Below, one piece after another: positions 1-16,770 of a DNA stretch of 64,000 nt; position 1 is the stretch's first letter, and each line of letters opens with the position of its first letter. Made by a program: the position numbers and the translations under genes. Source of the DNA: Rhizobiaceae bacterium. Lineage in GTDB: Bacteria; Pseudomonadota; Alphaproteobacteria; Rhizobiales; Rhizobiaceae. The notes beneath the pieces were generated by a model. It did no database searches, was not told the DNA's origin, and saw nothing but the letters and a program-made list of their open reading frames with translations. Where the stretch lies: positions 7,567-71,566 of the forward strand of contig JBFOMG010000004.1 in the NCBI GenBank assembly GCA_040830725.1. Direction: 5' to 3'.

Positions 1-453
1 CTTCTGGCCGCAAGTGGACACGAACCGCATCTCGATCATCAGCACCGGTTGTTGATTGCCAATTGCCTTGCACAATCCGAAGCGCTGATGCGCGGGCGCA
101 CCGGAATCGAGGCCGCGTCACAATTGGCCGATCAGGGCATGACGCGTCAGGAGGCCGCCAAACTGGTGCCGCACAAGACCTTTCCCGGCAACCGGCCGTC
201 AATGACGATTCTGTACAAGAAACTCACGCCCCACACGCTGGGCGAACTCATTGCGCTTTATGAACACCGCGTATTCGTCGAAGCCTGTCTTTATGGCATC
301 AACGCGTTTGACCAGTGGGGTGTGGAACTTGGAAAGGAACTGGCAACCGGTTTGCTGCCCGTTGTCGAACAGCGCAAATCAGCGAGCGGTCATGATGCGT
401 CGACAAAAAACCTGCTGGCCAGAATATTTACGCTTCGCGAGCAGGTGGGTTAA
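1..453 (+). CDS. pgi: glucose-6-phosphate isomerase, C-terminal fragment (gene starts upstream of window)
   Basis: Frame 1 is open from base 1. The motif [34 protein letters not shown] is typical of the Pgi C-terminus. Confidence 0.9.
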
Positions 454-473
454 AACCCTTCGGTGGAACCGCT

Positions 474-911
474 CTAGCTCGCCAAACCCTCAAGCGCCGA
501 ACGCAATTTGGCGTTCAGCGGCATTGATTTCCGTGTTTTGCGATCGACATAAACATGAATGAAGTGACCCTCGGCGGAGGCGATTTCCTCTTCATTGCGA
601 AACAACCCGACTTCATAGCGGACCGAGGATTTCCCCAGCCGTTCGACTTTGATTCCGGCAGTAACAACGTCGGGGAACGCCATCTCGGCGAAATATCTGC
701 ACCCGGTTTCCACCACCAGTCCGACTTGATCTCCAGCGGTAAGATCGAGAACATCCTGTTCAATCAGCCATCCATTCACCGCAGTGTCGAACAGTGAATA
801 GTGCACCACATTGTTCATGTGACCATAGACGTCATTGTCCATCCAGCGCGTCGAAATGGTGCGAAACACCTTGTAATCGCTTCGGGTGGAAGGCCTCTGC
901 CTTTCGCTCAT
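474..911 (-). CDS. acyl-CoA thioesterase, 4HBT/YbgC-like hotdog fold
   Basis: 145 aa. WMDNDVYGHMNNVVHYSLFD is hotdog-thioesterase-like. ATGA start/stop overlap with the upstream alcohol dehydrogenase gene. Confidence 0.75.
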   Translation of the reverse strand: MSERQRPSTRSDYKVFRTISTRWMDNDVYGHMNNVVHYSLFDTAVNGWLIEQDVLDLTAGDQVGLVVETGCRYFAEMAFPDVVTAGIKVERLGKSSVRYEVGLFRNEEEIASAEGHFIHVYVDRKTRKSMPLNAKLRSALEGLAS

Positions 912-2068
912 AGCGCCGCCTTGTAAATCGCCAATGCATCGGCCTCCGTGACCTCGCGCGGATTATTGACCAGCAATCGCGTCTGCAACATGGAATCAGC
1001 GGCCATTTTCGGAAGGTCACCCTCACTGATGCCGACTTCGCGCAAGGTTGTTTGCAGGCCGAGCTTCCTGGACAAATCTGCCAGCGCCTCGATGAAACCT
1101 GCACACCGGCTTTGGGTGCCGGCCTCATTGGCCAGCCCCGGGAAAGCGTCAGCCGCGATCTCGGCATAAAGCGGCGCCGCGTCGGGGGCGTTGAATCGCA
1201 AGACATGCGGCAGCACCAGCGCGTTTGACAGACCATGGGGGACGTGAAATGTGCCACCTATGGGATAGGCAAGCGCGTGCACGGCCGCAACCGGTGAGTT
1301 GGCGAAGGCCTGTCCCGCCAGCATTGAGCCGAGCAGCATGGCCCCGCGGGCTTTCACATCGCTACCGTTGAACACTGCCGTCTCGATATTGGCTCCCAGA
1401 AGCTGCAAAGCCTGGCGCGCCAGCATTTTCGAAACCGGATTGTTGTTGGCATTCTTTGATGCGTAAGCCTCAATGGCGTGTACCATCGCGTCCACACCGG
1501 TTGCCGCGGTTGTTGCGGCTGGAAGACCGAGCGTCAAATCCGGATCCAGGATTGCGATGTCAGGCAGGATGATAGGCGAGGAGACACCGCGTTTTTCTTC
1601 GCCTCCCACCGTGATGATCGAAACAGGCGTGGCCTCAGATCCGGTCCCTGCGGTTGTTGGCACCAGAACCAGCGGCAGACGTGGCCCCTTGGCATTTGCG
1701 ACACCCCACGCTTCATCGATATCTTCGCCTGATCCTGCAAGCAGCGCAACGAGTTTGGCGATATCCATGGAGGAACCGCCACCAAAACCGATAACGCCGG
1801 TGGCGCCAAGAGAACCAGCCAGTTCCACGGCCTTTTGCAGAGTATCAAGCGACGGATCAGCTTCGACTTCGGAGAAGATTGCCATCGTCAAACCGGCTTC
1901 TTTCAGCGAATCGACCGCTCTGTCTGCAAGGCCCAGCGACATTATTCCCGGATCGGTAACGAACAGGACTTTTGTACCGAGGACAGATCCGGCAATGTTT
2001 CCGAGATCGGCGGCAATACCTTCGCCAAACCGCACGCTGGGCGTTGTGTTGAAGTTAAACGGCGTCAT
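908..2068 (-). CDS. iron-containing (group III) alcohol dehydrogenase
   Basis: 386 aa. GFGGGSSMDIAK and PTTAGTGSE motifs and His-rich metal site (DAMVHAIEAY, HALAYP..HVPHG). Confidence 0.85.
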   Translation of the reverse strand: MTPFNFNTTPSVRFGEGIAADLGNIAGSVLGTKVLFVTDPGIMSLGLADRAVDSLKEAGLTMAIFSEVEADPSLDTLQKAVELAGSLGATGVIGFGGGSSMDIAKLVALLAGSGEDIDEAWGVANAKGPRLPLVLVPTTAGTGSEATPVSIITVGGEEKRGVSSPIILPDIAILDPDLTLGLPAATTAATGVDAMVHAIEAYASKNANNNPVSKMLARQALQLLGANIETAVFNGSDVKARGAMLLGSMLAGQAFANSPVAAVHALAYPIGGTFHVPHGLSNALVLPHVLRFNAPDAAPLYAEIAADAFPGLANEAGTQSRCAGFIEALADLSRKLGLQTTLREVGISEGDLPKMAADSMLQTRLLVNNPREVTEADALAIYKAAL

Positions 2069-2169
2069 TCAAATTCGCTCCATATCGCCCAAGTTTCTGC
2101 ATTCCTGTTTACAGTCCCGTCTGATCGGAATGTAAACAGCAAACGAGAATGATCATCCAAATTGTTTGG

Positions 2170-2199
2170 AAAAAGGCTCAGTTCGGTCCGAATCCGAAC
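2170..2199 (-). terminator. candidate intrinsic terminator of the formate dehydrogenase operon
   Basis: On the minus strand: GTTCGG-7 nt-CCGAAC hairpin, then a 6-nt spacer and T5. The stem is weak and the spacing suboptimal. Confidence 0.3.
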
Positions 2200-2256
2200 C
2201 TCACGGATGTGGTGGCAATTTGGTTTGACGCGCCAGAGCGGAAGCAGGCCTTTCCT

Positions 2257-2382
2257 CTACTCCAGGCGAACCGATGAGCTTGCGTTTACATCAGCGCTGG
2301 AAAACCCGATTTGATCGAGTATCAGATCGGACCCGACTGCAATGACGATGATGGCGGCAAATGCGATCAGCATTGGTTTCAT
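2257..2382 (-). CDS. 41-aa single-pass membrane peptide, last gene of the FDH operon (below the ORF-track cut-off)
   Basis: My own translation: MKPMLIAFAAIIVIAVGSDLILDQIGFSSADVNASSSVRLE. AAAGGA Shine-Dalgarno sits 6 nt upstream. The start is 11 nt after the stop of the WD40-cytochrome c gene. Confidence 0.4.
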   Translation of the reverse strand: MKPMLIAFAAIIVIAVGSDLILDQIGFSSADVNASSSVRLE

Positions 2383-2393
2383 CTCGGATCCTT

Positions 2394-3734
2394 TCAACGC
2401 GACGTGGCTTGACGAAGGTAGTCGATCAGGTCGTCGCGATCTTGTTTTCTGGCAATACGCTGCATCGGCATTTTCGATCCGGGGATGTAGTGATCAGGCC
2501 CCAGATCAAACAGTTTGTCTATCGTGTCGTCACCCCAGACGATATCAGATCCGGACAGGGTTTTGGAGAAATTGTAACCGTCCAGGGCGCCTGCCCTTCG
2601 GCCAAACAGGCCATAAAGCGTTGGCCCGGCCCTGCGGCTGCCTTCGGCTTCGAGCGAATGACAGATTGAACACTTTCTTGCAAACTGCCGTTCGCCGTTT
2701 TCCATTTTGGCCGGATCGCGAAGAAATTCCGGATTGCTGTCAGCCATCGGCCCGAGATCCTTGATCTGGTCGAGCGGCCAGGAATAGACAATGCTTTCAA
2801 TGCCGCCGGCATGAATGTTTTTGCCGTCGTTAGAGAATGCGAGCGCCCAGATCGGACCTCGCAATGCGGCGCGAAAATCATGGATGATTTTCCACTGGTC
2901 CGTATCAACAATCATGATAAAGCCATCGCCATCACCGACCGCTATCTTGTCGCCTGAATCCGTCTGGGAAATCGAAAGAATAGGTCGCCGCTCAAGGGTA
3001 AAATCTGCAATTTGCTCGTCGGTGGACAAGTCGATGACACGCGTGACGCCGTCGACCGCACCATAGGCAAGCCAGCCGTGCCGGTGATTGAGTGTCATGA
3101 CATTGACGCCAAACCCGTGCCGCAGCATCAGGCGTTTTTCCCTGCGTCCGCCCACGTCCCAAGTACGGATAGTTCCGTCGGTTGACGCCGAATAAAGGAG
3201 AGAACCATCGGCAGAAAATGCGACATCATTGACGCCGGATTTGTGGCCGCCCAGGAATGAGACGTCGCCGCGGTCATCAAGCGGCCAAAGCCCGATCGTG
3301 CCGTCCCAGCTTGCTGTTGCCAACAGCGATTGATCCGGAGCCACAGCAAGCGCCATTATTTTGGCCTTGTGCCGCCCGAGCATCCTTCCGGTTCCAGACG
3401 CCCTGTCCCAGAGGCGGACGGAATAATCATCTCCGGCAGAGGCCAATCGATGTTCGCCGATGAAAACGACCGAGTTGACCGCCGCCTCGTGCGCTTCCAG
3501 CCAAACCGGCTTGCGGCCGTCCCAGATGCCGACTGAATTGTCAAAGCTGGCTGTTGCAATGGTTCCGCTATCCGATGACACCGCAACATCCATCACCGGG
3601 CCGCCATGCCCCTTGAGCGTGAAAAATTCTCCGGCGCTGGTTGACAGCGGAACAATGGCCATGCTCAGCGCCGCAGCGACCATAGCGCCAAACGCGGATA
3701 TTCGAAAATCAGCCACGGGATCGGAGTTGGTCAC
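2394..3734 (-). CDS. membrane-anchored/periplasmic WD40 beta-propeller fused to a C-terminal class I cytochrome c domain
   Basis: 446 aa. Repeated WD40-type blades (SFDNSVGIWD, GDDYSVRLWD, SWDGTIGLWP, STDGTIRTWD). C-terminal CSICH heme motif followed by GP.LYGLFGR...IPGSKMP. GTGA overlap with the gamma-subunit stop. Confidence 0.85.
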   Translation of the reverse strand: MTNSDPVADFRISAFGAMVAAALSMAIVPLSTSAGEFFTLKGHGGPVMDVAVSSDSGTIATASFDNSVGIWDGRKPVWLEAHEAAVNSVVFIGEHRLASAGDDYSVRLWDRASGTGRMLGRHKAKIMALAVAPDQSLLATASWDGTIGLWPLDDRGDVSFLGGHKSGVNDVAFSADGSLLYSASTDGTIRTWDVGGRREKRLMLRHGFGVNVMTLNHRHGWLAYGAVDGVTRVIDLSTDEQIADFTLERRPILSISQTDSGDKIAVGDGDGFIMIVDTDQWKIIHDFRAALRGPIWALAFSNDGKNIHAGGIESIVYSWPLDQIKDLGPMADSNPEFLRDPAKMENGERQFARKCSICHSLEAEGSRRAGPTLYGLFGRRAGALDGYNFSKTLSGSDIVWGDDTIDKLFDLGPDHYIPGSKMPMQRIARKQDRDDLIDYLRQATSR

Positions 3735-4942
3735 TCAGCAGGAACAATTTCTCCATCGGGCGCTTCGGTTTCTGCATTCATAACCTCCTCAACCCAAAGG
3801 CTGTGATGTTCCCTCGCCCATTGCAAATCGACTTCGCCGGATCCCATTGCGTCATACGCTCCTTCCATGCCCACCGAGCCGATATAGATATGGGCCAAAA
3901 TTATCGCGATCAGCACGAAAGCGACGATCCCGTGCCACAGTTGCGCATATTGCATTTCTTCGTGTGGCGTCAGTTCCGTTGGAAGCGCACCCATACCGGG
4001 CAGACTGGTGATGCCGATTGCCGACAGCTTCTGGAAAGTCACTTCGAACATGGGTAGTTCGAAGGGGAACAGCAATGACAGGCCGGATGCTGAAATTGAT
4101 GCGCCAAGAATGATCACCGACCAGAAAATCAGTTTCTGGCCCGCATTGAATTTCTTTGCCGGTGGATGAACGCCCTTTACAAAAAGGCCGCCGCCCTTTG
4201 CCATCCATGTCAAATCGGTTCTGCTGGGCAAATTGTGGATCACCCACATGACGAACACCATCACCAGACCGAGGATGAATGCCCACGAAACACTGTTGTG
4301 AACCCATTTGGATGCGAGTGCCAAATTCGAAAACATATCCTTGCCGAGTATTGGAATAAGCGCTGTACGGCCGAACAAGGTAATAAGCCCGGTGATGCCC
4401 AACAGGATGAACGACCCTGCCAGTAGCCAGTGGCCAAATCGCTCAATCGCCTTGAAGCGAGTGATCGTTCGTCCGGTTTTCTCTCCGTCAATCCGGATGC
4501 GACCGCGAAGCGCAAAAAACAGCGCAAGCAAAACAAGAGTGGCGAGCAACAAATACCCGCCCCACTGCGCCATGGGTCCGGCCCGGAACTCGAGCCAGCG
4601 CATGCCGCCATCCTGCACCAAAATTGCACCGACCTCGCCACCGGAAGAAGCATTGATGTCGGCCGAGCCGTAACGGAGTGCTCGCCAAAGCTCTGGATCC
4701 GAAGCACCGCCAAGCGTTCCCAATTGCGATGAAATTGCCGCTGCGCTGTCCGGATCGCCGATCGCTTCGCGTCTGAACGCATCGTCGATCTTCTCCCCGC
4801 GCTGGCGCGCCATGATGTCTTCCAGCGTCTGGGCTCCGCCGGTTGACGACCGGTCGCCGCTTTCCTGGGCCATTGGCGTGACCGGTGCAAAAATGCCGGA
4901 AAGGGCAATCGACAACAGGAGGACAAACAACGCGCGCATCAT
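3731..4942 (-). CDS. formate dehydrogenase gamma subunit (cytochrome b) with long periplasmic N-terminal extension
   Basis: Track ORF 3731..5554 trimmed to the ATGATG at 4942 (MMRALFVLLLSIALSG signal-like start), because the upstream part overlaps the beta-subunit gene. C-terminal multi-TM His-containing cytochrome b region. Confidence 0.8.
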   Translation of the reverse strand: MMRALFVLLLSIALSGIFAPVTPMAQESGDRSSTGGAQTLEDIMARQRGEKIDDAFRREAIGDPDSAAAISSQLGTLGGASDPELWRALRYGSADINASSGGEVGAILVQDGGMRWLEFRAGPMAQWGGYLLLATLVLLALFFALRGRIRIDGEKTGRTITRFKAIERFGHWLLAGSFILLGITGLITLFGRTALIPILGKDMFSNLALASKWVHNSVSWAFILGLVMVFVMWVIHNLPSRTDLTWMAKGGGLFVKGVHPPAKKFNAGQKLIFWSVIILGASISASGLSLLFPFELPMFEVTFQKLSAIGITSLPGMGALPTELTPHEEMQYAQLWHGIVAFVLIAIILAHIYIGSVGMEGAYDAMGSGEVDLQWAREHHSLWVEEVMNAETEAPDGEIVPAE

Positions 4943-5039
4943 GGCAGCACCTCGGTTCAAGCCGGAATATTGCAAGTAAGTTCGACCGGGGCGATCTGTC
5001 GACCGCCCCGGGAAAGGCAATGGGGACAAATGTGCGGCG

Positions 5040-5633
5040 TCAGCCGCCCTTTTGCCCGTATGCCGTGCCCCAGCCCCAGGCACCCGTACCGAATCCGCGG
5101 GCAACAACACGCTCGCGGTAGATGCCTGAAACCACATCGCCATCGCCGGCAAGCAGTGCCTTGGTCGAGCACATTTCTGCGCAAATCGGCAACTTGCCTT
5201 CAGCAATACGGTTGCGTCCGTATTTCTGGAACTCCGCCTGGCTATGGTTTTCTTCCGGTCCACCGGCGCAGAAGGTACATTTGTCCATCTTACCGCGCGA
5301 ACCGAAATTGCCCGCCTGCGGAAACTGCGGTGCTCCGAACGGGCACGCATAGAAGCAGTAACCGCAACCAATGCAGAGGTCCTTCGAATGCAGGACCACG
5401 CCATCGTCGTTCTGATAGAAACAGTCGACAGGGCATACCGCCATGCATGGCGCGTCGGAACAATGCATGCAGGCCACGGAGATCGACCGCTCACCTGGGC
5501 TGCCATCATTGATGGTGACCACCCGGCGACGATTGATACCCCAAGGTACTTCATGCTCGTTCTTACAAGCCGTCACGCAGGCGTTGCATTCAATGCAGCG
5601 TTCGGCGTCGCAGAGGAATTTTGCTCTAGCCAT
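5040..5633 (-). CDS. formate dehydrogenase beta subunit, 4Fe-4S ferredoxin-type
   Basis: 197 aa. CIECNACVTACK, CMHCSDAPC, CIGCGYCFYACP and CTFC cluster motifs. Confidence 0.9.
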   Translation of the reverse strand: MARAKFLCDAERCIECNACVTACKNEHEVPWGINRRRVVTINDGSPGERSISVACMHCSDAPCMAVCPVDCFYQNDDGVVLHSKDLCIGCGYCFYACPFGAPQFPQAGNFGSRGKMDKCTFCAGGPEENHSQAEFQKYGRNRIAEGKLPICAEMCSTKALLAGDGDVVSGIYRERVVARGFGTGAWGWGTAYGQKGG

Positions 5634-5644
5634 TATTTTTCTCC

Positions 5645-8539
5645 TTATGCTGCAGTGATCTTGCAGAGAGTGGCCTTGGTCTCCTGCATCTGGGTGACCG
5701 AGTCGTAACCGTAGGTCTGCGCGGTGTTCGACGACTCACCCAGAACGTATGGATCGGCCCCTTCGGGATATTTGTCCCTCAAGTCGGCGCCCTCAAAATG
5801 GCCGCCGAAGTGGAACGGCATAAACGCAACTCCCGAACCAACTCTCTCGGTGACCATGGCCATGACCTTGACCTTGGCGCCTTCGGCACCTTCGACCCAG
5901 ACCTGTTCGCCGTCGCGGATACCCAAATTGTTGGCATCGCGCGGGTTGATTTCGACGAACATGTCCTGCTGCAGTTCAGCAAGCCACGGATTGGAGCGCG
6001 ATTCATCGCCACCACCCTCGTACTCAACCAGGCGGCCGGACGTCAGGATCATTGGATAATCCTTCGAGAAGTCCTGCTTCTGGATCGACGCATACATGGT
6101 CGGCAGACGATAGAACTTGCGGTCCTCATAGGTCGGATAATCGGCCACGAGATCGCGACGAGGCGTGTAGAGCGGCTCGCGGTGCAAGGGCACCGGATCC
6201 GGGAACGTCCACACAACCGCGCGGGCCTTTGCATTACCAAATGGTGCGCAGCCATGCTTGATCGCTACGCGCTGGATACCGCCAGACAGATCGGTTTTCC
6301 AGTTGGTCTTCGGCCCTGCCACCGCGTCGATCGCAGCACGCTCGTCATCAGTCAGGTCTCCATCCCAACCCAGATCCATCAGCATCTGCATGGTGAATTC
6401 CGGATAACCATCCTGAATTTCCGAACCAGGATTGTAGACGCCCTCCGCCAGGAGATTGTCGCCATCCCGCTCAACGCCGAAGCGGGCACGGAAACACAAG
6501 CCGCCCTCTGCAACAGGCTTGGACATGTCATAGAGGTTTGGCGTACCGGGATGACCCATTTCGGCTGTACCCCAGCAAGGCCAAGGCAGGCCGTAATAGT
6601 CACCGTCAGCCGGACCGCCAATGGCCTGCAGCGTCGTCCTGTCAAACGTATGCTGATTGGCCATGTGCAGTTTCAGCCGTTCGGGCGACTGACCAGTATA
6701 GCCAATCGTCCAGAGCCCGCGGTTGAATTCGCGGGTGATGCTCTCGACGTTTGGTGTTTCCGCATCTTCCATCTCGATGTTGCGGAAGAAACGGTCAGCC
6801 CATCCGAACTTGTTGGCAAACTTCGCCATGATGACTTCATCCGGCAAGCTTTCAAACAGCGGATCGACAACCTTGTCGCGCCACTGGAAGGAGCGGTTTG
6901 ATGCCGTCACCGAACCGCGTGTCTCAAACTGCGTGCACGCGGGCAGCAGATAGACACCGTCGGTCCTGTCATGGAGAACCGCCGAGACGGTTGGATATGG
7001 ATCGATCACGACAAGCATGTCGAGCTTCTCCATCGCCGTCTTCATTTCCTTCATGCGGGTCTGCGAGTTCGGTGCATGGCCCCACAGAACCATTGCCCGT
7101 ACATTATTGGGCTGGTCGATGTTGTCGGCATCCTCGAGAATGCCGTCGATCCAGCGGCTGACCGGAATACCCGTCAAGTTCTGGAGCGACTTTTCTTTGC
7201 CGTCAGCACCGGTGATCTTGTCAAACTGGCCTGCCAGCCAATCCGGATCCTCTTCCCAGACCCGGGCCCAGTGCGCCCACGAACCTTTCGAAAGGCCGTA
7301 GTAGCCGGGCAAAGTGTGACTGAGGACGCCAAGATCTGTTGCGCCCTGCACGTTGTCGTGGCCACGGAAGATATTGGTTCCGCCGCCGGTGGTTCCCATA
7401 TTGCCAAGCGCCAACTGCAAGACACAGTAAGCACGCGTGTTGTTGTTGCCGTTGGTATGCTGGGTTCCACCCATGCACCAGATCACCGTACCGGGACGGT
7501 TGTTGGCCATGGTGCGGGCAACACGGCGAAGCTGCGAACCGGGTGTGCCGGTGACGCGCTCAACTTCCTCAGGCGTCCATTTAGCGACTTCCGCCTTGAT
7601 CTGGTCCATGCCCCACACGCGGGTGCGAATGAACTCATTGTCTGCCCAGTCGTTCTCGAAAATGTGCCAGAGAATACCCCAGATCAGCGCAACGTCCGTG
7701 CCCGGGCGGAAACGCACATATTCATCCGCATGGGCGGCAGTGCGTGTGAACCGCGGATCACATACGATCAGTGGCGCATTGTTTTGCTCCTTTGCCCGCA
7801 GCACGTGCAGCAAGGATACAGGGTGCGCCTCGGCAGGGTTGCCACCGATAATGAAGATCGCCTTGGAATTGTGGATGTCGTTGTAGCTGTTTGTCATGGC
7901 GCCGTAGCCCCATGTGTTTGCCACGCCGGCGACCGTCGTTGAATGACAGATGCGTGCCTGATGGTCCACATTGTTCGTGCCCCAGTAGGCTGCGAACTTT
8001 CTGAACAGGTAGGCCTGTTCGTTATTGTGCTTGGCCGATCCAAGCCAATAAACACTGTCCGGCCCGCTTTCGTCGCGGATTTTCATCATGCCATCGCCGA
8101 TCTCGTTGATGGCCTCTTCCCAGCTGACGCGTTTCCACTCGCCGCCTTCTTTCTTCATCGGATACTTCAGGCGGCGCTCGCCATGGGCGTGCTCGCGTAC
8201 CGATGCGCCTTTTGCGCAATGCGCGCCGAGATTGAACGGGCTGTCCCAGCCGGGTTCCTGGCCGACCCAGACACCGTTGGAAACTTCAGCGATAACTGTG
8301 CAGCCAACTGAACAGTGGGTGCAAACCGATTTGACGGTTTCTACCGCGTCGTTGCCGTTGCTTTGAGCCTTCGCCTTCGTCACCGACCCGGCAGTGGCGC
8401 CAATAGCCGCCAGACCGCCCACGGCCAGTCCCGAACCACGCAAAAATGCGCGGCGGTCAACCGATTTGTCCGCAAAACTTGACAGGATACTGGCCCGCTG
8501 GGGGCGTCTCGCAACCCCGTTGGTCTTTTTCCTTAGCAT
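5645..8539 (-). CDS. formate dehydrogenase alpha subunit, bis-MGD molybdopterin enzyme, Tat-exported, Cys-type
   Basis: 964 aa. Twin-arginine signal DRRAFLRGSGLAVGG. N-terminal CTHCSVGC Fe-S motif. ARICHSTTVAG active-site region with Cys (TGT at 7946-7948) where Sec-type enzymes have TGA. Strong GGAGAGAGGAA RBS. Confidence 0.95.
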   Translation of the reverse strand: MLRKKTNGVARRPQRASILSSFADKSVDRRAFLRGSGLAVGGLAAIGATAGSVTKAKAQSNGNDAVETVKSVCTHCSVGCTVIAEVSNGVWVGQEPGWDSPFNLGAHCAKGASVREHAHGERRLKYPMKKEGGEWKRVSWEEAINEIGDGMMKIRDESGPDSVYWLGSAKHNNEQAYLFRKFAAYWGTNNVDHQARICHSTTVAGVANTWGYGAMTNSYNDIHNSKAIFIIGGNPAEAHPVSLLHVLRAKEQNNAPLIVCDPRFTRTAAHADEYVRFRPGTDVALIWGILWHIFENDWADNEFIRTRVWGMDQIKAEVAKWTPEEVERVTGTPGSQLRRVARTMANNRPGTVIWCMGGTQHTNGNNNTRAYCVLQLALGNMGTTGGGTNIFRGHDNVQGATDLGVLSHTLPGYYGLSKGSWAHWARVWEEDPDWLAGQFDKITGADGKEKSLQNLTGIPVSRWIDGILEDADNIDQPNNVRAMVLWGHAPNSQTRMKEMKTAMEKLDMLVVIDPYPTVSAVLHDRTDGVYLLPACTQFETRGSVTASNRSFQWRDKVVDPLFESLPDEVIMAKFANKFGWADRFFRNIEMEDAETPNVESITREFNRGLWTIGYTGQSPERLKLHMANQHTFDRTTLQAIGGPADGDYYGLPWPCWGTAEMGHPGTPNLYDMSKPVAEGGLCFRARFGVERDGDNLLAEGVYNPGSEIQDGYPEFTMQMLMDLGWDGDLTDDERAAIDAVAGPKTNWKTDLSGGIQRVAIKHGCAPFGNAKARAVVWTFPDPVPLHREPLYTPRRDLVADYPTYEDRKFYRLPTMYASIQKQDFSKDYPMILTSGRLVEYEGGGDESRSNPWLAELQQDMFVEINPRDANNLGIRDGEQVWVEGAEGAKVKVMAMVTERVGSGVAFMPFHFGGHFEGADLRDKYPEGADPYVLGESSNTAQTYGYDSVTQMQETKATLCKITAA

Positions 8540-8642
8540 TTCCTCTCTCCCATTGTTGCGCCTGATTGTCCGGGCGCTTGGAGTTTTTGTGAATCCGGCG
8601 TTCGGGCGTCACGCAACCTTGGCCGGTTCGGCTTGGTTCTTT

Positions 8643-8834
8643 CTAGAACTTTGCCGATGCAAAATAGGCGCGCGTATGCGCAGTATCCTGCATGCGGTCG
8701 CCAGCCTCTTCAGCCTTGGCTTCCGCTTCCGAAACACCTGCCGCAACAGCTGCTGCAGCCGCTGGCGCAGAAAGGCCAGCCAGTTTCAGAAAATCGCGGC
8801 GGTCATTTCGTTTGACCTCCTCGTTTTTACGCAT
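8643..8834 (-). CDS. small twin-arginine-signal protein of the 'formate dehydrogenase region TAT target' type
   Basis: 63 aa. RRDFLKLAG Tat motif, then an Ala-rich segment. GGGAGGA RBS. Lies immediately upstream of the alpha subunit. Confidence 0.8.
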   Translation of the reverse strand: MRKNEEVKRNDRRDFLKLAGLSAPAAAAAVAAGVSEAEAKAEEAGDRMQDTAHTRAYFASAKF

Positions 8835-8885
8835 GGGAAAATTCCTCCCGTTGTTGTGGCGGACATTCCGCCGTTATGACCGGGT

Positions 8886-9503
8886 TCAGCCGGTCCCCAT
8901 CCGGAATGCCTCCTGCTCGATATCCATGAACAGCCGGCCGACAGCGCCGACCGATGCGTAGAACACCGAACTTTTGGTTGATTCCAAATCCGTGAAAAAA
9001 TGCCCGGCCCATGGGCCGATGTGCTTGTCGAAGAAAGCCTTTTGCTCTTCCAATTCGGCGACACTGCCAAAGCGGCCCATAATCAGCCCGCCCATCATCT
9101 CCATCAGCGAGGCAATATTGTCTTCCGGTTCGAAAACGTTTTCAGCTCTGGCAATCTGGCGCTCTGCCATTTCTCCGCGCAATTGTGCCAGCGGTTTCTC
9201 GTTCAGGAACCCTGTCAGATAGTATGATGCATAGGGAAGCAATTCTCCCCGGCTCAACCCGACAAATAACGTGTTGAATTCGCGCTCTGCTGCCTTCGGT
9301 TTCGTGACGTTTGCCACACGCGCCAGTCCTGAGATCGCTTCGCCCAGGTCGCTGGAATCACCTGTCAATTCGGCAGTCTGCTGAAGGAGGCCGGCGTTGG
9401 GTGGGCGGGACAAAATCAAGCCTAGATAGTCGTACAGGTCCGCGCGCATCCGGTCTTCCGGTGCAACCAGTCCCAAAACGGCTTCAGCGGCTGCTGACAT
9501 CAA
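8886..9503 (-). CDS. TorD/DmsD-family redox enzyme maturation chaperone
   Basis: 205 aa. LFVGLSRGELLPYASYYLTGFLNEKPL is typical of TorD-like chaperones. The start is TTG at 9503 or ATG at 9500, abutting the DUF3306 stop. Confidence 0.8.
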   Translation of the reverse strand: MMSAAAEAVLGLVAPEDRMRADLYDYLGLILSRPPNAGLLQQTAELTGDSSDLGEAISGLARVANVTKPKAAEREFNTLFVGLSRGELLPYASYYLTGFLNEKPLAQLRGEMAERQIARAENVFEPEDNIASLMEMMGGLIMGRFGSVAELEEQKAFFDKHIGPWAGHFFTDLESTKSSVFYASVGAVGRLFMDIEQEAFRMGTG

Positions 9504-10154
9504 CTATCCCTTTGCCTCGTGACCTTGCAACTGTTGGTTCTCGCCCGAAAAATGAAACCGCATCCGGCGTATGGGCACTGCTCTGGCTTCCGACACCATG
9601 TTCACTTCAAGCGGCTGTCCTGCCTGTTCGGGAGGCTCACCTTCCGGATCATCTATTGAATCAGCTTCGGCTGACGCCGGAGTGATTTCCACGTCTTCTG
9701 CAAGGTACTCAGAGTCGCCTTCAGTTTCGGTCGAAATCTCAGCTTCATCATCCACATCTGCAAGCGCCTCGATATGTTTGAGCATGCCCTTTCCCACCTG
9801 ATAGGCAGTCTGCAAGTTTTCAACGACCGTTGCACCGTCGGTGTAATCCTCGCCATACTCAATCAGGCCATCAAGATTTGCGAGAGCCGGATTGCTGAGC
9901 CATAGCTTTCTGAGCGCTCGACGCCTGATGCGCTCCGGCACCGCCTTGCCCATGAATGCCTTGAAATCATCGCCTAATTGTAGCTCGTCTGGATCGGGGA
10001 GATTGAGCTCTTCAAGAATTTCACCGTCTGTTTTGGTTTCCAGCTCCTGCAATTCCGCTTCGCGTTGCGTGTCCTCCGCGACGGCGAGCTCGGCCTCTGC
10101 CTCAGCGCGGACACCGGCCTTTCGTTTGCTCCAGAAGTCAGTTGCGGAGGTCAA
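9504..10154 (-). CDS. DUF3306-like acidic low-complexity protein
   Basis: 216 aa, very Glu/Asp-rich. TTGA overlap with the upstream gene. The family call is from memory of FDH-neighbourhood families. Confidence 0.6.
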   Translation of the reverse strand: MTSATDFWSKRKAGVRAEAEAELAVAEDTQREAELQELETKTDGEILEELNLPDPDELQLGDDFKAFMGKAVPERIRRRALRKLWLSNPALANLDGLIEYGEDYTDGATVVENLQTAYQVGKGMLKHIEALADVDDEAEISTETEGDSEYLAEDVEITPASAEADSIDDPEGEPPEQAGQPLEVNMVSEARAVPIRRMRFHFSGENQQLQGHEAKG

Positions 10155-10705
10155 TGCAGTCGCTCCAGCTTGGCAGATTTCGGTGACCGATAGACGTCGG
10201 TCAGTTGCGGAATCCGGGGGTCGCCGACACCATCCTCGACAAGTTCGACGGTAACCCGGTCGCGGCGGCGTTTTACGAACTCTTCCGGCTCATGGTGCTC
10301 GTCAATGAAAGCCTTGATCCAGGCAATCAGGCCTGAAGGCATCGCGACCTTTTCGACGATATCCTCGCCGCTGTCTGCGTAGTCCTGGGCCTCGTATGGA
10401 GAAGCGGTTGCTAGCAGTACCTCCACAGGGATGTCGTCGCCGTTTGCCGGTTCCTGGCGCAGGATTACGAAGATTGAGGGGATTTTTTCGCTCAAGCCCG
10501 TCAGATAGGCTTCCGTGTCAGTCCGGTGCAATTCCAGAGTGACGGTTGCCGCGTGATATTCAACGGCGTCACCTTCTTTTCGCAGCACCTGCCAATTCGC
10601 AGGACCAGCACCGGGGAGGACTGATACAGCCTTCCAAGACCATTTGGCCCAACGCGTAACGCCCGGCAGCCGGCGCACGACAATACCGAGCGGCAAAGTC
10701 CGCAT
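10151..10705 (-). CDS. DUF3305-like protein
   Basis: Track ORF 10151..10777. I prefer the ATG at 10705 (MRTLPLGIVVRRLPGVTRWAKWSW), which matches the usual family N-terminus. The start is uncertain. Confidence 0.6.
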   Translation of the reverse strand: MRTLPLGIVVRRLPGVTRWAKWSWKAVSVLPGAGPANWQVLRKEGDAVEYHAATVTLELHRTDTEAYLTGLSEKIPSIFVILRQEPANGDDIPVEVLLATASPYEAQDYADSGEDIVEKVAMPSGLIAWIKAFIDEHHEPEEFVKRRRDRVTVELVEDGVGDPRIPQLTDVYRSPKSAKLERLH

Positions 10706-11079
10706 TCTTTCAATTTTACCGGACAATGCTCCTCCCAAAGCCTGCGCGGATATTTGTGCACGAACAGAATGCAACATATTGCATTATTTGCAAGCTCCGG
10801 GAGCTGGAATGCTGCAATTGTGAAGACTGTATTCGACTAAAGTGTAAGATGCTTTTCCGGAGCATCCTGAAAACGCACATTTGCTGATGGTTGCGCGCCA
10901 AAAACCCTCCGAATCGTCGTGACTCCAACGAGCTTTTGTCGCTCGGTTGAGAGCGGACAGTCGTGTGGCAGGAAATTAGGTTTCAAACGGCGGCTTTACT
11001 GCCGCGAAGTTTCGTGACTAGTTTCACTGTTCGCACACGGGCAGGCAAGTGCCAAAAGTGAAGTAAGAATTTGAAAAAG

Positions 11080-13056
11080 ATGCCTAAACAATTGGTATTG
11101 TGTGACTGTATGGGTTCGCAAGACATTGACGTAGATGCCTTGTCGAGCGCTTGCGGTGGCATGAAGTGTTCCAACGTTCACACCGAGTTGTGTCTGAGCG
11201 AGATCGAAATTGCTGCCGAAGCGATCCGGTCCGGTGACGCGATTATTGCATGTCAACAGGAGCGGCGGCGGTTCGAGGACCTTGCCGCGGAATTGGAAAT
11301 CGACCCGCCCGGATTTGTAGACATTCGCGACCGGGCCGGCTGGTCTGCCGACAAAAATCCAAAAACCGCCAAAATGGCAGCACTTGTCGCCGAGGCTCAA
11401 TTACCGGCGCAACGGCAAAAGTTGTTCGACATCGTTTCGGAAGGTCTTTGCCTTGTCATGGGCGCCAGTGAGACTGCTTTGGAAGCCGCTGATCAATTGA
11501 GCAACCACCTGAGCGTCACGGTCCTTCTTCCACCGGAATTCGCCAAGGATAGCCAGATTGGCGCCGGCGCCAGGCAATTTGACATTGTGTTTGGCGATCT
11601 GCGGATCGCATCAGGCTCGCTTGGCAATTTTGACCTTACAATCGACAAATTCACTGAGCCAGTACCAGGTGGGCGGGATTCATCCACCTGCACAGAAGCT
11701 CGCGACGGAGCGCAGTCACAATGCGATATCATTGTCGATCTGTCGGGTGCAGCACCTCTGTTTCCAGCCCACAAGAAACGTGACGGATATCTGCGCGCTG
11801 ATCCCCGGTCAGCCGGTGCGGTCGCCAAAACAGTGCTGGATGCATCGCACCTTACCGGCACGTTCGAAAAACCGCTCCATGTAAGGCTGGACGAGCAATT
11901 ATGCGCCCATTCACGGGCGCAAAAAACGGGGTGTTCAAAGTGCCTGGACAATTGTCCGACCGGGGCGATTACGCCGAACGGAGACTTCGTCACCGTTGAT
12001 CCAGCGATCTGTGCAGGCTGCGGCACTTGTTCCGCAATCTGTCCTTCCGGCGCAATCTCATATGATACACCAGCGCCAGCCGAAACGTTCAAGCGTATCG
12101 AAACACTGGCTTCCACCTATCGTAAAATTGCCAAATCGCCACCGAGGTTGCTGGTTCACGATGAAGACCATGGCCGCGAAATGATCTCGCTTTGCGCGCG
12201 CCACGATCGCGGCCTGCCTTCAGATGTAATCCCAATGGAAGTCTCGGCGCTCGCAGCGTTTGGACACGCCGAAATGTTGGCAGCCCTGGGTAGCGGATTT
12301 GCATCGGTAACTGTGTTGCTGTCTCCGAATACCGATAATGATGCAGTCGAGCGTGAGCTTATGATCGTATCGGCCATTGGCGGGACGGGAGCCATCAATC
12401 TTCTGGACATCGCCGATCCGGCCCACCTTGCGGATCACCTCTACAACCAGGCCGAACTCAATGATCCAGTGGTCAAGCCGGTTCTCCCACTGGGTTCCCG
12501 GCGCCAGGTAACCCGCCTAGCTGCAAAGGCCATCAGGCCCGATGTAAACACAATCGAATTACCCCAGGGCGCGCCCTATGGCACGATAATGGTCGATACT
12601 GAAGCATGCACACTTTGTCTTGCCTGTGTGTCGCTCTGCCCGTCCGGTGCCCTGGGAGACAATACGGAATCTCCGCAACTTCGTCTTCAGGAAAGCGCGT
12701 GCCTGCAATGTGGCCTGTGCAAAAACACCTGCCCGGAATCCGCTATTTCCCTGAAACCACAACTCAATCTTGCTGACGAGGCGCTGTCGCACCAAGTGCT
12801 GCACGAAGAAGAACCTTTTGCCTGCATCGAATGCGGAAAACCATTTGGCGTGAAATCCACGGTCATGCGGATCACCGAAAAACTGGCTGGCAAACATGCC
12901 ATGTTCGAGAACTCAGACGCCGTGAAAATCATCCAGATGTGCGATGATTGCCGTGTGAATGCGCAGTTTCACTCCGAGAACAATCCATTTGCCGGCGGAG
13001 AGCGCCCACGTGTACGCACAACAGACGACTACCTGTCGAAAAGACGGGATCATTGA
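11080..13056 (+). CDS. large polyferredoxin (four 4Fe-4S-type motifs plus N- and C-terminal Cys clusters)
   Basis: About 658 aa. CSKCLDNCP, CAGCGTCSAICP, CTLCLACVSLCP, CLQCGLCKNTCP and C-terminal CIECG...CDDC. TTG at 11071 is an alternative start. Confidence 0.8.
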   Translation: MPKQLVLCDCMGSQDIDVDALSSACGGMKCSNVHTELCLSEIEIAAEAIRSGDAIIACQQERRRFEDLAAELEIDPPGFVDIRDRAGWSADKNPKTAKMAALVAEAQLPAQRQKLFDIVSEGLCLVMGASETALEAADQLSNHLSVTVLLPPEFAKDSQIGAGARQFDIVFGDLRIASGSLGNFDLTIDKFTEPVPGGRDSSTCTEARDGAQSQCDIIVDLSGAAPLFPAHKKRDGYLRADPRSAGAVAKTVLDASHLTGTFEKPLHVRLDEQLCAHSRAQKTGCSKCLDNCPTGAITPNGDFVTVDPAICAGCGTCSAICPSGAISYDTPAPAETFKRIETLASTYRKIAKSPPRLLVHDEDHGREMISLCARHDRGLPSDVIPMEVSALAAFGHAEMLAALGSGFASVTVLLSPNTDNDAVERELMIVSAIGGTGAINLLDIADPAHLADHLYNQAELNDPVVKPVLPLGSRRQVTRLAAKAIRPDVNTIELPQGAPYGTIMVDTEACTLCLACVSLCPSGALGDNTESPQLRLQESACLQCGLCKNTCPESAISLKPQLNLADEALSHQVLHEEEPFACIECGKPFGVKSTVMRITEKLAGKHAMFENSDAVKIIQMCDDCRVNAQFHSENNPFAGGERPRVRTTDDYLSKRRDH

Positions 13057-13802
13057 TGTTTGATCGGCGCACCAAGATTAGCGGGGGAAATCGTCGCAGC
13101 GTAGGCCATGATCGCCTCGAGATCTTCAAGCGTCATTTCCAACGGCGCGATCGGCGAAGGCCGCTGGGAGCTAAACGGCTCTGTGACTTCCTCGATCTGC
13201 GTGAATGCGGGGTGCGGGTTGAGCACGTAGAATGTCTGAAAACGCGCTTCCCAATCTTCAAAACTGCGCAAGAGCGAGAAGGATGGTGTGGATCCGATGG
13301 CGTTCATCCGGTTCGTTTCGTTAACGACGTGGCAGCGCCCACAATGGCGGAGGGACAACTTCTCTCCTGCAGCGGCGTCACCACCGTTCGAGACCACTTT
13401 TACCACGGCCACTTTCTTTGCCTGTGGCGAAAATGGCGCAACTCCATCCGGTTTGAACGAACCGATCGTCCGGCGTCCGACATCGGAAGCCAGCCATTTG
13501 GCAAACCGTTCGGCATGCGGCCGCCGGTCCGAGGCGGTAATTCCGAGATACCAGTTTTGCTCCACACCGCTGAATGCAATCGTTCCGGAGCTATCCGCAG
13601 AAAAACTCGCGTCCGCGGGTTCGCCAAAATTGACGACCGTGATGCGTATTCCGGTTTTCAGCGAAAAGCGCGGCAGCAAGTATTTGAGAAATCCCGTCTC
13701 GACAATATCGGGGTGTGCGCTGAGCTTGAATTCCCGCTCCTGCGCAACTGCAATGCCTGCGAAAACACCTGCAGATATTACCAATATGGCCAATCTGTGC
13801 AT
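13050..13802 (-). CDS. secreted protein: TupA/ModA-like N-terminal segment fused to a single-heme CxxCH domain
   Basis: 250 aa. Signal peptide MHRLAILVISAGVFAGIAVA. ETGFLKYLLPRFSLKTGIRITVV resembles tungstate/molybdate-binding proteins. CGRCH heme c motif. Its 3' end overlaps the polyferredoxin 3' end by 7 nt (convergent). Confidence 0.55.
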   Translation of the reverse strand: MHRLAILVISAGVFAGIAVAQEREFKLSAHPDIVETGFLKYLLPRFSLKTGIRITVVNFGEPADASFSADSSGTIAFSGVEQNWYLGITASDRRPHAERFAKWLASDVGRRTIGSFKPDGVAPFSPQAKKVAVVKVVSNGGDAAAGEKLSLRHCGRCHVVNETNRMNAIGSTPSFSLLRSFEDWEARFQTFYVLNPHPAFTQIEEVTEPFSSQRPSPIAPLEMTLEDLEAIMAYAATISPANLGAPIKHQ

Positions 13803-13903
13803 CGATTAATCCCGGTTTGCATCCCATCCCGGACCAATGAAGCGTAAATTGCACAGGACGATAAGGTCAATGCTCGTGATTCTATTGAAGGAGGGAGAGA
13901 ACC

Positions 13904-14098: not shown

Positions 14099-14099
14099 C

Positions 14100-16368: not shown

Positions 16369-16499
16369 CGAATGCGCCACGACTGTGTACTTGCCCTTAA
16401 TGTTTGGGTGCAGAACCTGAACAATCAATGAATATGCGCCTCAGTCGGAGTTCAGCCGCAGAACGCATACTTGGCTGGAATTCAAGGGAGGACGAGTTC

Positions 16500-16733: not shown

Positions 16734-16770
16734 ACCCTGTAATTAGGGCAGCATGCGGTGGTGACACGGT

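Follow-up and report, generated by a model that had tools for sequence, protein, structure and literature searches.

FDH3-type enzymes are the periplasmic formate dehydrogenases (FDHs) of many marine Rhodobacterales, Stappiaceae, and methylotrophs, in which formate is the end product of the oxidation of methyl groups from DMSP, TMAO, glycine betaine, and methanol. Which acceptor takes up the electrons of FDH3 in vivo has, to our knowledge, not been settled. In a Ruegeria transcriptome, fdh was found to be induced during C1 catabolism. In the 64,000-nt stretch of DNA analyzed here (the window), an FDH operon ends in two additional genes, one encoding a fusion of a WD40 β-propeller to a cytochrome c and the other a 41-residue membrane micro-protein, and the locus raises the question of whether these proteins belong to the enzyme and, if they do, whether they receive its electrons.

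The Formate Dehydrogenase Operon

All features of the operon lie on the minus strand, and coordinates are given as positions in the window. The upstream part of the conserved cluster (8643..10777) comprises the genes for a 63-residue Tat-target protein (8643-8834), a TorD-like chaperone (8886-9503), a DUF3306 protein (9504-10154), and a DUF3305 protein (10151-10777), an order that is kept in most of the 80 best genome loci, which come from Rhizobiaceae MAGs, Roseibium/Labrenzia, Ruegeria, Roseovarius, Sedimentitalea, Litoreibacter, Defluviicoccus, and others. The three subunits of the enzyme follow: the molybdopterin catalytic subunit FdhA (5645..8539), which is Tat-exported and carries an RRAFL twin-arginine motif at residue 29; FdhB, the β subunit (5040..5633; 197 residues); and FdhC, the γ subunit (3731..4942; 403 residues), a di-heme cytochrome b (PF01292, TIGR01583) whose gene ends in a TGA stop codon at 3733-3731. 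Genes of the maturation type are abundant around the FDH cluster and include those for the TorD-like chaperone, the DUF3305 and DUF3306 proteins, a polyferredoxin, and Mrp.

The enzyme is a periplasmic formate dehydrogenase of the FDH3 type, with the Shewanella FdhAB (PDB 9VAP) as its nearest relative of known structure. FdhB scores 346.6 bits against the NCBIfam model NF038355 (FDH3_beta; cut-off of 240) and shares the operon with a Tat-exported α subunit and a di-heme γ subunit, the latter scoring 128.7 bits against TIGR01583 (cut-off of 115.85). FdhA matches chain A of 9VAP with 1427 bits, and FdhB matches chain B with an E value of 1.6e-101. The initial annotation had measured the complex against classical enzymes of the FDH-N type (FdnGHI), but it is not an FDH-N, given scores below the cut-offs of TIGR01582 (53.4 versus 334.7 bits) and NF007558 (74 versus 339 bits) and a β subunit of only 197 residues.

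The α-β-γ logic of Escherichia coli FDH-N (FdnGHI, PDB 1KQF) is nevertheless retained, as is a γ subunit with four heme b histidines. In an alignment of FdhC to chain C of 1KQF, all four heme-ligand histidines are kept, and the quinone-reducing redox loop is therefore likely to be kept as well. In contrast to FDH-N, FdhB of the window has no C-terminal membrane helix, and FdhC has an N-terminal extension of ~157 residues, in which a signal or transmembrane segment, a periplasmic domain of ~100 residues, and one more transmembrane helix precede the FdnI-like four-helix core. The FdhT-FdhX-FdhA1-FdhB1-FdhC1 cluster of Shewanella oneidensis MR-1, which encodes the closest solved catalytic core (SoFdhAB, 9VAP), shares with the window a TorD-like chaperone, a small Tat-target protein, FdhA, a short anchorless FdhB, and an FdhC of the cytochrome b kind; as listed, it contains no propeller, c-type cytochrome, or micro-protein gene (PMC13066108). 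The FDH3 of Methylorubrum/Methylobacterium extorquens AM1 (fdh3ABC) is of the same enzyme type, periplasmic with a cytochrome b γ subunit, and is described as fdh3ABC only, with a propeller-cytochrome c protein and a micro-protein unmentioned (PMC2991311).

The probable end of the operon is a terminator-like GC hairpin with a T-run (2180..2200), located 57 nt past the stop codon of the micro-protein gene and ahead of an Fe-ADH gene. The hairpin is a consensus match only, and such matches show no clear enrichment in the region (15, versus 9.7 ± 3.3 in shuffled sequences). A promoter scan gave matches at chance level, and an Rfam scan of positions 1-17000 found no family at gathering score, with no Moco riboswitch.

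The Propeller-Cytochrome c Fusion Protein

The fusion gene occupies 2394..3734 and comprises 446 codons if the GTG at 3734 is its start codon. This GTG (3734-3732) overlaps the fdhC stop codon as GTGA, as had been noted before, and the reading frame ends with TGA at 2396-2394. The overlap is thus present, but the GTG is not a secure start, since the nearest relative (L042, 91% identical) reads GTA at this position. Two alternative start codons, a GTG at codon 7 (3716) and an ATG at codon 18 (3683), are kept in both the window and this relative. The true start is uncertain; judging from the sequence, the spacing between fdhC and the fusion gene is at most about 50 nt whichever start is used.

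The first 34 residues (3633..3734) are predicted to form a Sec-type signal peptide, cleaved between STSA and GEFF, on the basis of the −1/−3 rule and the charge of the n-region. More than 4000 homologues of the fusion protein were found, for which the only label is “c-type cytochrome”. A set of 50 homologues has pre-sequences of 21 residues in the median, with Lys or Arg in the n-region of 46, Ala at position −1 in 43, and a small residue at position −3 in 48, a pattern that indicates a classic signal-peptidase I site. These positions immediately precede a conserved (E/D)FFTLKGHGG segment. The N-terminal membrane anchor that had been proposed for the protein is disfavored by this pattern, and the fusion protein is probably secreted and soluble, with its Sec signal cleaved.

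The mature protein comprises two domains (Pfam matches: WD40, PF00400, E value of 2.2e-39; Cytochrom_C, PF00034, E value of 7e-11), and the earlier description of a WD40 propeller that ends in a mitochondrial-type cytochrome c is borne out. Residues 36-322 (2769..3629) constitute a seven-bladed WD40 β-propeller. In the AlphaFold2 model, 28 strands form seven blades between residues 38 and 320, with pLDDT values mostly above 90, giving the closed ring of tandem repeats, usually seven-bladed, that defines a WD40 propeller. The top Foldseek match is the seven-bladed WD40 domain of PkwA (5yzv), with a target-normalized TM-score of 0.94, and WDR5 and RACK1 match with TM-scores of 0.82-0.87.

Residues 340-446 (2397..2717) constitute a class I monoheme cytochrome c domain. 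The sole CxxCH motif of the protein is CSICH (residues 355-359; nucleotides 2658-2672), and the predicted axial ligand is Met422 (nucleotides 2469-2471) in a PGSKMP motif; Cys355, Cys358, His359, and Met422 are invariant in 51 sequences. An alignment of residues 344-445 to human cytochrome c (residues 3-103) has a single gap, ~45% identity, and an E value of 1e-25. The domain thus combines the features of the class: a single CxxCH motif, a distal Met in PG(S/T)KM, and a full-length alignment to the mitochondrial protein. It is predicted to carry covalently bound heme, and the Sec signal is consistent with maturation in the periplasm. In the AlphaFold2 model, this domain has pLDDT values of 33-59, such that its orientation on the propeller is not readable from the model. 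In the genus g164, the gene looks broken, with a TAG stop codon in one genome (G167) and a split reading frame in another (G321).

Quinohemoprotein alcohol dehydrogenases and the cytochrome cd1 nitrite reductase NirS likewise pair a periplasmic β-propeller with a class I cytochrome c, which carries electrons toward or away from the propeller partner. The propellers of these enzymes have eight blades and hold PQQ or heme d1 as a cofactor, whereas the propeller of the window is a seven-bladed WD40 domain with no match to a cofactor family, and homology extends only to the general fold class. A catalytic propeller of the PQQ or cd1 type was accordingly rejected on the grounds of the seven blades and the lack of a PQQ family among the best 25 of 43 Pfam matches.

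The Micro-protein and the Linkage of Both Genes to FDH3

The last gene of the operon (2257..2382) encodes a 41-residue single-pass membrane protein, MKPMLIAFAAIIVIAVGSDLILDQIGFSSADVNASSSVRLE, recognized from homology, codon periodicity, and hydropathy. Its ATG lies 11 nt past the fusion stop codon, and an AAAGGA Shine-Dalgarno-like motif (2389..2394), read directly from the sequence, is found 6 nt 5′ of the ATG and shares the last base of that stop codon. The peptide and its ribosome-binding site had been picked out from the window alone, and both stand. Kyte-Doolittle hydropathy averages 2.61 over residues 4-22, and the family consensus consists of MK, a transmembrane helix, GFS, and a C-terminal VRL, of which the Arg is nearly invariant.

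The gene is real and under purifying selection. The three codon positions show variabilities of 0.88, 0.63, and 1.40 bits, respectively, and comparison with the nearest relative reveals 11 synonymous and three nonsynonymous codon differences. The family contains 338 database protein clusters, all labeled “hypothetical” and none with a Pfam domain. It was defined by a length of 40-77 residues, an N-terminal MK or MR, one transmembrane helix, a C-terminal (V/A)R(L/V), and a position beside fdhC or beside an FDH-linked cytochrome c; the peptide of the window has all of these features and seeds the alignment and HMM, with relatives down to an E value of ~1e-22. A type I toxin, a leader peptide, and a chance open reading frame were rejected in view of the excess of synonymous changes, the 338-cluster family, and the conservation of the gene in 79 of the 80 loci. 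In size (~40 residues), in having one transmembrane helix, and in being the product of a gene that ends the operon of a membrane redox enzyme and that gene callers easily miss, the micro-protein resembles CydX and CydH of cytochrome bd and CcoQ of cbb3 oxidase; it has no sequence similarity to CydX-like proteins and no Pfam or NCBIfam match, and the resemblance is an analogy only.

The initial annotation had made its proposal depend on synteny of the fusion gene with FDH in relatives, and the synteny held: the fusion gene lies 3′ of fdhC in 80/80 of the best loci, followed by the micro-protein gene in 79, and rearranged loci retain the association as well. The fusion gene is found at the far end of the FDH cluster, convergent with a polyferredoxin gene, in six loci (L017-L021 and L027), and it converges on fdhC in three others (L025, L136, and L140). 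In one further genome (G414), it lies ~12 kb from fdh3C, adjoining the polyferredoxin gene, and the peptide of this genome is close to those of Methylobacterium.

A split form is present in 10 of 52 evaluable fdhC loci, with separate genes for a WD40 protein (~322 residues) and a cytochrome c (~131 residues) beside fdhC. In one of these loci (L037), both genes start with a signal-peptide-like segment, and in eight of the 10, the micro-protein gene is directly 3′ of the stand-alone cytochrome c gene, forming a two-gene unit. The stand-alone WD40 protein beside fdhC is the best genome-wide match to the propeller of the window in 5/5 split-form genomes, and the stand-alone cytochrome c is the best match to the cytochrome c domain in four of the five, with one near tie. 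By sequence, the fused and split forms make up a Rosetta-stone pattern.

Co-occurrence across genomes agrees with this linkage. Fusion genes and an FDH3-like γ subunit are found together in 35 of 36 fusion genomes of a class-level sample. Among 401 Pseudomonadota genomes, all 19 that bear the fusion also encode an FDH3 β subunit above the curated cut-off, and the fusion is present in 0/356 genomes without one, counts whose statistical support is overstated by kinship among the genomes. Within the same sample, 19 of the 23 FDH3 genomes from Alphaproteobacteria have the fusion, as against none of 22 from other classes. Neither the propeller nor the cytochrome c is nearby in 19 of the 52 sampled FDH3-type loci, and this absence, together with that from the 22 non-alphaproteobacterial genomes, shows the module to be dispensable for core FDH function.

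These data bear on the simplest alternative, in which both genes share no more than the neighborhood or the regulation of FDH, within C1 metabolism, and serve another periplasmic redox system. One genome (G251), in which 84 kb separate the fusion gene from the FDH cluster and no FDH gene is closer to it than 4 kb, is as this explanation would have it. Against it stand the linkage in every one of the 80 loci, which has outlasted several rearrangements, the absence of the fusion from the FDH3-β-negative genomes, and the adjacency of fused and split forms alike to fdhC; the alternative is already disfavored and is considered very improbable. Full-text literature searches returned no description of the fusion or the micro-protein beside FDH. 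The last two operon genes very probably encode widely conserved, uncharacterized accessory proteins that are specific to FDH3.

The two genes are not equally tied to each other. The micro-protein gene is present in 34 of the 52 fdhC loci, some of which contain no WD40 or cytochrome c gene. In a 100% complete genome (G280), it lies beside fdhC with no WD40 match genome-wide, and in Methylobacterium marchantiae, fdh3C is directly followed by a gene for a 67-residue family member, and the 10 kb on each side contain no gene for a propeller or a cytochrome c. Assignment of the peptide to the FDH operon is thus upheld, but it follows the γ module and not the fusion specifically. A role as a propeller-specific tether is weakened by its occurrence beside fdhC in propeller-less loci and genomes, which makes a subunit of the γ module more likely. 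The micro-protein is most likely a small subunit of the FdhC membrane module, a partner suggested by gene position.

Electron Transfer from Formate Dehydrogenase

The initial annotation had suggested an alternative periplasmic electron outlet or a supercomplex scaffold, and both are hypotheses. In the mechanism proposed here, the fusion protein would be exported by Sec, its signal peptide probably cleaved, and its heme attached in the periplasm. The seven-bladed propeller would then act as a docking platform on the FDH complex, holding the mitochondrial/c2-type cytochrome c domain within electron-accepting range of the enzyme. The donor could be either the iron-sulfur chain of FdhB or the periplasmic-side heme b of FdhC, and the cytochrome c domain would pass electrons on to cytochrome-c-dependent acceptors, such as heme-copper oxidases, of which three catalytic subunits are encoded in the host genome. 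The cytochrome c would be a second outlet alongside the intact quinone route of FdhC, an addition and not a replacement, given the four conserved heme-ligand histidines. The micro-protein would span the membrane once, probably with its N terminus inside and its C terminus outside, exposing the conserved …VRL tail to the periplasm. The explanation as a whole, an accessory pair particular to alphaproteobacterial FDH3 that consists of a propeller-docked cytochrome c outlet and a micro-protein of the FdhC module, is judged to have slightly better than even odds; the chances that the fusion protein is an outlet of this kind to the cytochrome c part of respiration are put at about even.

The initial annotation had pointed out that the textbook FDH-N complex includes no c-type cytochrome. 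This is true of E. coli FDH-N, which has no c-type cytochrome, propeller, or micro-protein, but the periplasmic FDHs of Desulfovibrio/Nitratidesulfovibrio use c-type cytochromes, as in FdhABC3, with its tetraheme c3 subunit, and in FdhAB, which works with TpIc3. In these systems, a Mo/W-FDH α-β core with a short β subunit delivers electrons to a dedicated c-type cytochrome from the same operon, and they are the closest precedent for the way in which the system of the window may work. The window system differs in having a single-CxxCH class I domain instead of a multiheme c3, which places it outside the FdhABC3 family, in the fusion or pairing of the cytochrome with a WD40 propeller, in the additional presence of a cytochrome b γ subunit, and in its aerobic hosts.

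Thermodynamics are less favorable to an outlet. Direct reduction of a high-potential cytochrome c by formate (about −420 mV) would waste energy relative to the quinone loop, and this loss, along with the absence of the module from many FDH3 loci, counts against an outlet. The report that Fdh3 activity of M. extorquens could not be assayed (PMC2991311) fits a natural electron acceptor that is still to be identified.

A more elaborate version of the mechanism treats alphaproteobacterial FDH3 as a five-component formate:cytochrome c oxidoreductase, in which the propeller would clamp onto FdhB or FdhC, the VRL tail would plug the propeller channel as a membrane tether, and the cytochrome c domain would carry electrons directly from FDH to terminal oxidases, with neither the quinone pool nor bc1 on the path. 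Such a five-component enzyme is regarded as doubtful. A related possibility, considered less likely again, is that the fusion protein organizes a supercomplex and is not there chiefly for FDH catalysis, with the propeller bridging FDH to a cbb3 or aa3 oxidase or to bc1, the cytochrome c serving as the resident carrier, and the 41-residue protein tethering the propeller through its …VRL tail. WD40 propellers are typically multipartner platforms with a central channel that binds short Arg-containing peptides, as is known for WDR5, itself among the Foldseek matches of the window propeller. Also in favor of the supercomplex are the nearly invariant C-terminal Arg of the micro-protein, the placement of the peptide gene directly 3′ of the stand-alone cytochrome c gene in 8/10 split loci, and the type of the cytochrome c domain, one known to dock on bc1 and oxidases. 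The supercomplex is opposed by the presence of the micro-protein in FDH loci that have no propeller or cytochrome c, those of G280 and M. marchantiae among them, and by the lack, in the loci examined, of any linkage between the FDH cluster and genes for an oxidase or bc1.

The fusion protein could also serve FDH without being an outlet, as a periplasmic factor for its stability, maturation, protection, or redox sensing; it might, for instance, keep the enzyme oxidized or activated under air while not carrying the bulk electron flux. Strict conservation of the heme ligands and a full mitochondrial-type cytochrome c fold point instead to genuine electron transfer, and cofactor insertion into Tat substrates is cytoplasmic whereas the fusion protein is periplasmic; a role of this kind is held to be improbable, somewhat more so than the supercomplex. 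It would nonetheless account for the optional occurrence of the module among FDH3 clusters and for the complete di-heme quinone route that remains in FdhC, and it would be at home in a cluster rich in maturation-type genes and in a clade of aerobes, whose FDH must tolerate O2, as the related enzyme SoFdhAB is reported to do (PMC13066108).

The preferred reading, a propeller-docked cytochrome c that works beside the quinone route, has consequences beyond this operon. A cytochrome c that is conserved, dedicated, and mounted on a WD40 platform offers a concrete candidate for the acceptor of FDH3 and, if it is the acceptor, would change the energy-yield calculation for formate oxidation in FDH3 bacteria. 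Should the five-component version prove true, the “unassayable” Fdh3 of methylotrophs would have its long-missing physiological acceptor, and a WD40 protein of the bacterial periplasm would, as is rarely seen, act as a respiratory docking module. The fusion protein is in any event an uncommon example of a eukaryote-style WD40 propeller in the bacterial periplasm, and with the peptide, respiratory enzymes gain another conserved micro-protein among their overlooked small subunits. For wiring O2-tolerant FDHs such as SoFdhAB to electrodes, a cytochrome that is their natural partner could also be of use.

Operon layout and architecture of the fusion protein

The FDH operon lies on the minus strand and encodes, from its first listed gene, a TorD-like chaperone (9503–8886), a 63-aa Tat-target protein (8834–8643), FdhA (α, 8539–5645), FdhB (β, 5633–5040), and FdhC (γ, 4942–3731, with its TGA stop at 3733–3731), followed 3′ of fdhC by the genes for the WD40 propeller-cytochrome c fusion and the micro-protein. 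The 446-codon fusion frame runs from a GTG at 3734–3732 to 2394, the GTG and the γ stop sharing bases as GTGA. The initial annotation took this GTG as the start; the overlap is present, but the codon is not conserved, being GTA in the nearest relative (91% identical), and the true start is uncertain. Alternative starts at GTG codon 7 and ATG codon 18 are kept in both the window and this relative, and fdhC and the fusion gene are tightly packed whichever start applies. The micro-protein frame of 41 codons opens with an ATG at 2382, 11 nt past the fusion stop, preceded by AAAGGA at a spacing of 6 nt, and ends at 2257. Between this gene and an Fe-alcohol dehydrogenase gene lies a terminator-like hairpin with a T-run (2200–2180, minus strand), which is only suggestive of a terminator because such matches in the region are not clearly above shuffle expectation. 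The γ stop-to-stop frame (3731–5554, minus strand) remains open for ~200 codons 5′ of the real start, ATG 4942, across the fdhB coding region, and so appears as a false 607-aa ORF when ORFs are listed mechanically.

By Pfam, the fusion comprises WD40 repeats (PF00400, E 2.2e-39) and, towards the C terminus, a Cytochrom_C domain (E 7e-11). In an AlphaFold2 model built from an alignment of 51 homologues, 28 strands fold into seven blades (residues 38–320, pLDDT mostly >90), and the cytochrome domain is poorly modelled. In Foldseek, the propeller matches canonical seven-bladed WD40 domains, with a target-normalised TM-score of 0.94 to PkwA (5yzv) and TM-scores of 0.82–0.87 to WDR5 and RACK1. Human mitochondrial cytochrome c aligns end to end, with one gap, to the last 107 residues (E 1e-25), CSICH and PGSKM included, and the 51 aligned sequences all share the haem-binding residues Cys355, Cys358, His359, and Met422. 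The seven-bladed propeller and the mitochondrial-type C-terminal cytochrome c of the initial annotation are thus borne out; a structure search found this domain combination in no solved structure. The N terminus is better described as a signal peptide than as the membrane anchor originally assigned. The pre-sequences of 50 homologues are 21 residues long at the median and carry Lys or Arg in the n-region (46/50), Ala at −1 (43/50), and a small residue at −3 (48/50); an invariant (E/D)FFTLKGHGG comes directly after them. This pattern points to a standard signal-peptidase I site, and with such a site the mature protein is most likely periplasmic and soluble.

Linkage of the fusion to FDH genes

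In a named-genome scan that took one genome per species, 576 relatives were found and gene order was examined in the best 80. In these, fdhC is directly upstream of the fusion gene in 80/80 and the micro-protein gene directly downstream in 79/80. The gap between aligned fdhC and fusion segments is mostly 0–100 nt, the outlier of 1116 nt being on a short contig (locus L087). The recurring arrangement consists of a TupA-like/cytochrome c gene, a polyferredoxin gene in the opposite orientation, and then, all in the orientation of the first gene, DUF3305, DUF3306, TorD-like, Tat-target, α, β, γ, fusion, and micro-protein genes. Hosts include Rhizobiaceae MAGs, Roseibium/Labrenzia, Defluviicoccus, one Burkholderiaceae MAG, and many Rhodobacterales (Ruegeria, Roseovarius, Sedimentitalea, Litoreibacter, Marivita). 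The linkage is independent of position, persisting despite rearrangement in distant relatives (30–40% identity), and the synteny with FDH genes, which the initial annotation had named as a check, holds. The fusion gene is found at the opposite end of the cluster, convergent with the polyferredoxin gene, in loci L017–L021 and L027, and convergent with fdhC in L025, L136, and L140.

Other secreted proteins are encoded in these clusters. A 250-aa secreted protein (13050–13802, minus strand) matches Cytochrom_C weakly (E 0.0019, residues 143–236), and its gene converges on and overlaps the end of the polyferredoxin gene (11071–13056). Since 53/80 related clusters have a homologue in this place, it is a candidate for a second FDH-linked c-type cytochrome; in some other genomes this position is taken by the WD40-cytochrome c gene. 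A Pfam-negative secreted protein of 123–128 aa is encoded in some relatives between fdhC and the WD40 gene (L037:2649–3020, minus strand) or directly 3′ of fdhC (L032 and L033). It may be a further uncharacterised FDH3-cluster accessory, and its gene could cause the ~0.5-kb γ-fusion gaps of loci such as L023, L128, and L130.

The propeller and cytochrome c also occur as separate proteins. An even sample of 401 alphaproteobacterial genomes gave 52 fdhC loci that could be evaluated: the fusion is downstream in 21, separate propeller and cytochrome c genes are present in 10, the propeller alone is within the retrieved stretch in 2, and neither is nearby in 19. In five further loci, for which <2.5 kb of sequence downstream was retrieved, the fusion is located at the other end of the cluster. 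In the split forms, the propeller protein is ~322 aa long, with seven WD40 Pfam repeats, and the cytochrome c ~131 aa, both genes opening with a signal-peptide-like segment in locus L037. In five split-form genomes that were compared, the propeller of the window finds its top genome-wide match in the WD40 gene next to fdhC in 5/5, and the cytochrome domain finds its own in the cytochrome c gene next to FDH in 4/5, with one near tie. This fused-or-split (Rosetta stone) pattern argues for a shared function of the propeller and the cytochrome c, and for one that involves FDH. Locus L150 (G090:C17:37800–44200), in which fdhC, the micro-protein gene, and a stand-alone cytochrome c gene share a strand and the WD40 gene is convergent, shows that the three accessory genes can permute around fdhC.

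In a class-level sample, this γ type is present in 35/36 fusion-bearing genomes, the lone exception being an assembly 82% complete in 660 contigs. In a phylum-level sample, 45/401 genomes have FDH3-β above the cut-off (23 alphaproteobacterial, 22 of other classes); the fusion occurs in 19, all alphaproteobacterial and FDH3-β-positive, and in 0/356 FDH3-β-negative genomes, counts that are descriptive and carry no statistical test because related genomes are not independent. The propeller-cytochrome c module is an optional one, and these samples show it in Alphaproteobacteria only. It and the FDH3 cluster are rare in the family of the window: 0/15 in the phylum sample and 5/24 among close relatives, 4/5 of these in its own genus. 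Beyond that genus, the best matches to the fusion are in Rhodobacterales and Roseibium, at 60–63% identity, and the genus may plausibly have gained the cluster by horizontal transfer. In genus g164 (loci L131 and L127), the fusion gene has an in-frame TAG in one genome (G167:C7:153369–154658) and is split over two frames in the other (G321:C1:2799660–2800888), with no micro-protein match after it in either, which may reflect decay of the module or sequencing errors.

The micro-protein

The micro-protein contains one strongly hydrophobic helix (residues 4–22, mean hydropathy 2.61), and Lys2 before it and an acidic tail ending in SVRLE after it suggest, by the positive-inside rule, an N-in/C-out topology. 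A 12-member profile retrieved 338 database clusters, all named hypothetical protein and none with a Pfam domain, from Roseibium, Labrenzia, Roseobacter, Methylobacterium, and Salinarimonas. Variability at codon positions 1, 2, and 3 is 0.88, 0.63, and 1.40 bits among 34 equal-length members, and the window gene differs from its nearest relative by 11 synonymous and 3 non-synonymous codons. These patterns mark a translated gene that is under purifying selection, and the small peptide of the initial annotation stands as a gene.

Its position varies. Of the 18 fused loci that have the micro-protein gene, 14 carry it after the fusion gene and 4 carry it between fdhC and the fusion gene or convergent on the latter; it follows the stand-alone cytochrome c gene in 8/10 split-form loci, and follows or converges on fdhC in 6/19 loci with neither propeller nor cytochrome nearby. 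One complete genome that lacks any WD40 match has the gene next to fdhC, and in Methylobacterium marchantiae a called 67-aa version is directly 3′ of fdh3C. What these settings thus share is the FDH membrane module, and we read the micro-protein as a probable small subunit belonging to the FdhC module; that it tethers the propeller protein is the weaker alternative.

Enzyme type and proposed electron route

FdhB passes the NCBIfam FDH3_beta model (NF038355; 346.6 bits, cut-off 240) and fails the FDH-N β model. Among solved structures, SoFdhAB of Shewanella oneidensis (PDB 9VAP) is nearest for both α (1427 bits) and β (E 1.6e-101); its operon, FdhT-FdhX-FdhA-FdhB-FdhC, lacks a cytochrome c, whereas that of the window includes the fusion cytochrome. 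The γ subunit aligns to Escherichia coli FdnI and is di-haem, with all four haem-b histidine ligands kept, so the quinone route looks intact and the cytochrome c appears to be an addition to it. Unlike FdnI, γ is extended at its N terminus by residues 1–157, in which a hydrophobic signal or membrane-spanning segment is followed by ~100 aa on the periplasmic side and then by one additional transmembrane helix (residues ~126–150). As FdhB lacks the C-terminal anchor of E. coli FdnH, this extension may substitute for the anchor or serve as a docking surface.

In the proposed mechanism, the propeller would dock on the periplasmic FDH surface, at FdhB, the FDH3-γ-specific N-terminal domain, or a γ loop, bringing the c2/mitochondrial-type cytochrome c within reach of electrons from the Fe-S chain or haem bP. 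The cytochrome could then hand electrons on to cytochrome-c-dependent acceptors; the host genome encodes three haem-copper oxidase catalytic subunits. Against such an outlet, many FDH3 clusters do without the module, and less energy would be conserved than via the quinone loop. The outlet mechanism is plausible and directly testable.

Periplasmic FDHs of Desulfovibrio donate electrons to dedicated c-type cytochromes, and this family is the closest functional precedent. A full-text literature search on WD40, cytochrome c, and FDH themes found no account of the fusion or the micro-protein. In Methylobacterium extorquens, Fdh3 and Fdh4 activities could not be assayed (PMC2991311), and in Ruegeria pomeroyi, fdh is induced during catabolism of TMAO-derived C1 units (transcriptome preprint). 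The fusion and micro-protein constitute a real, conserved, uncharacterised accessory module of FDH3-type formate dehydrogenase, a variant of the already known periplasmic FDH with a dedicated cytochrome c.
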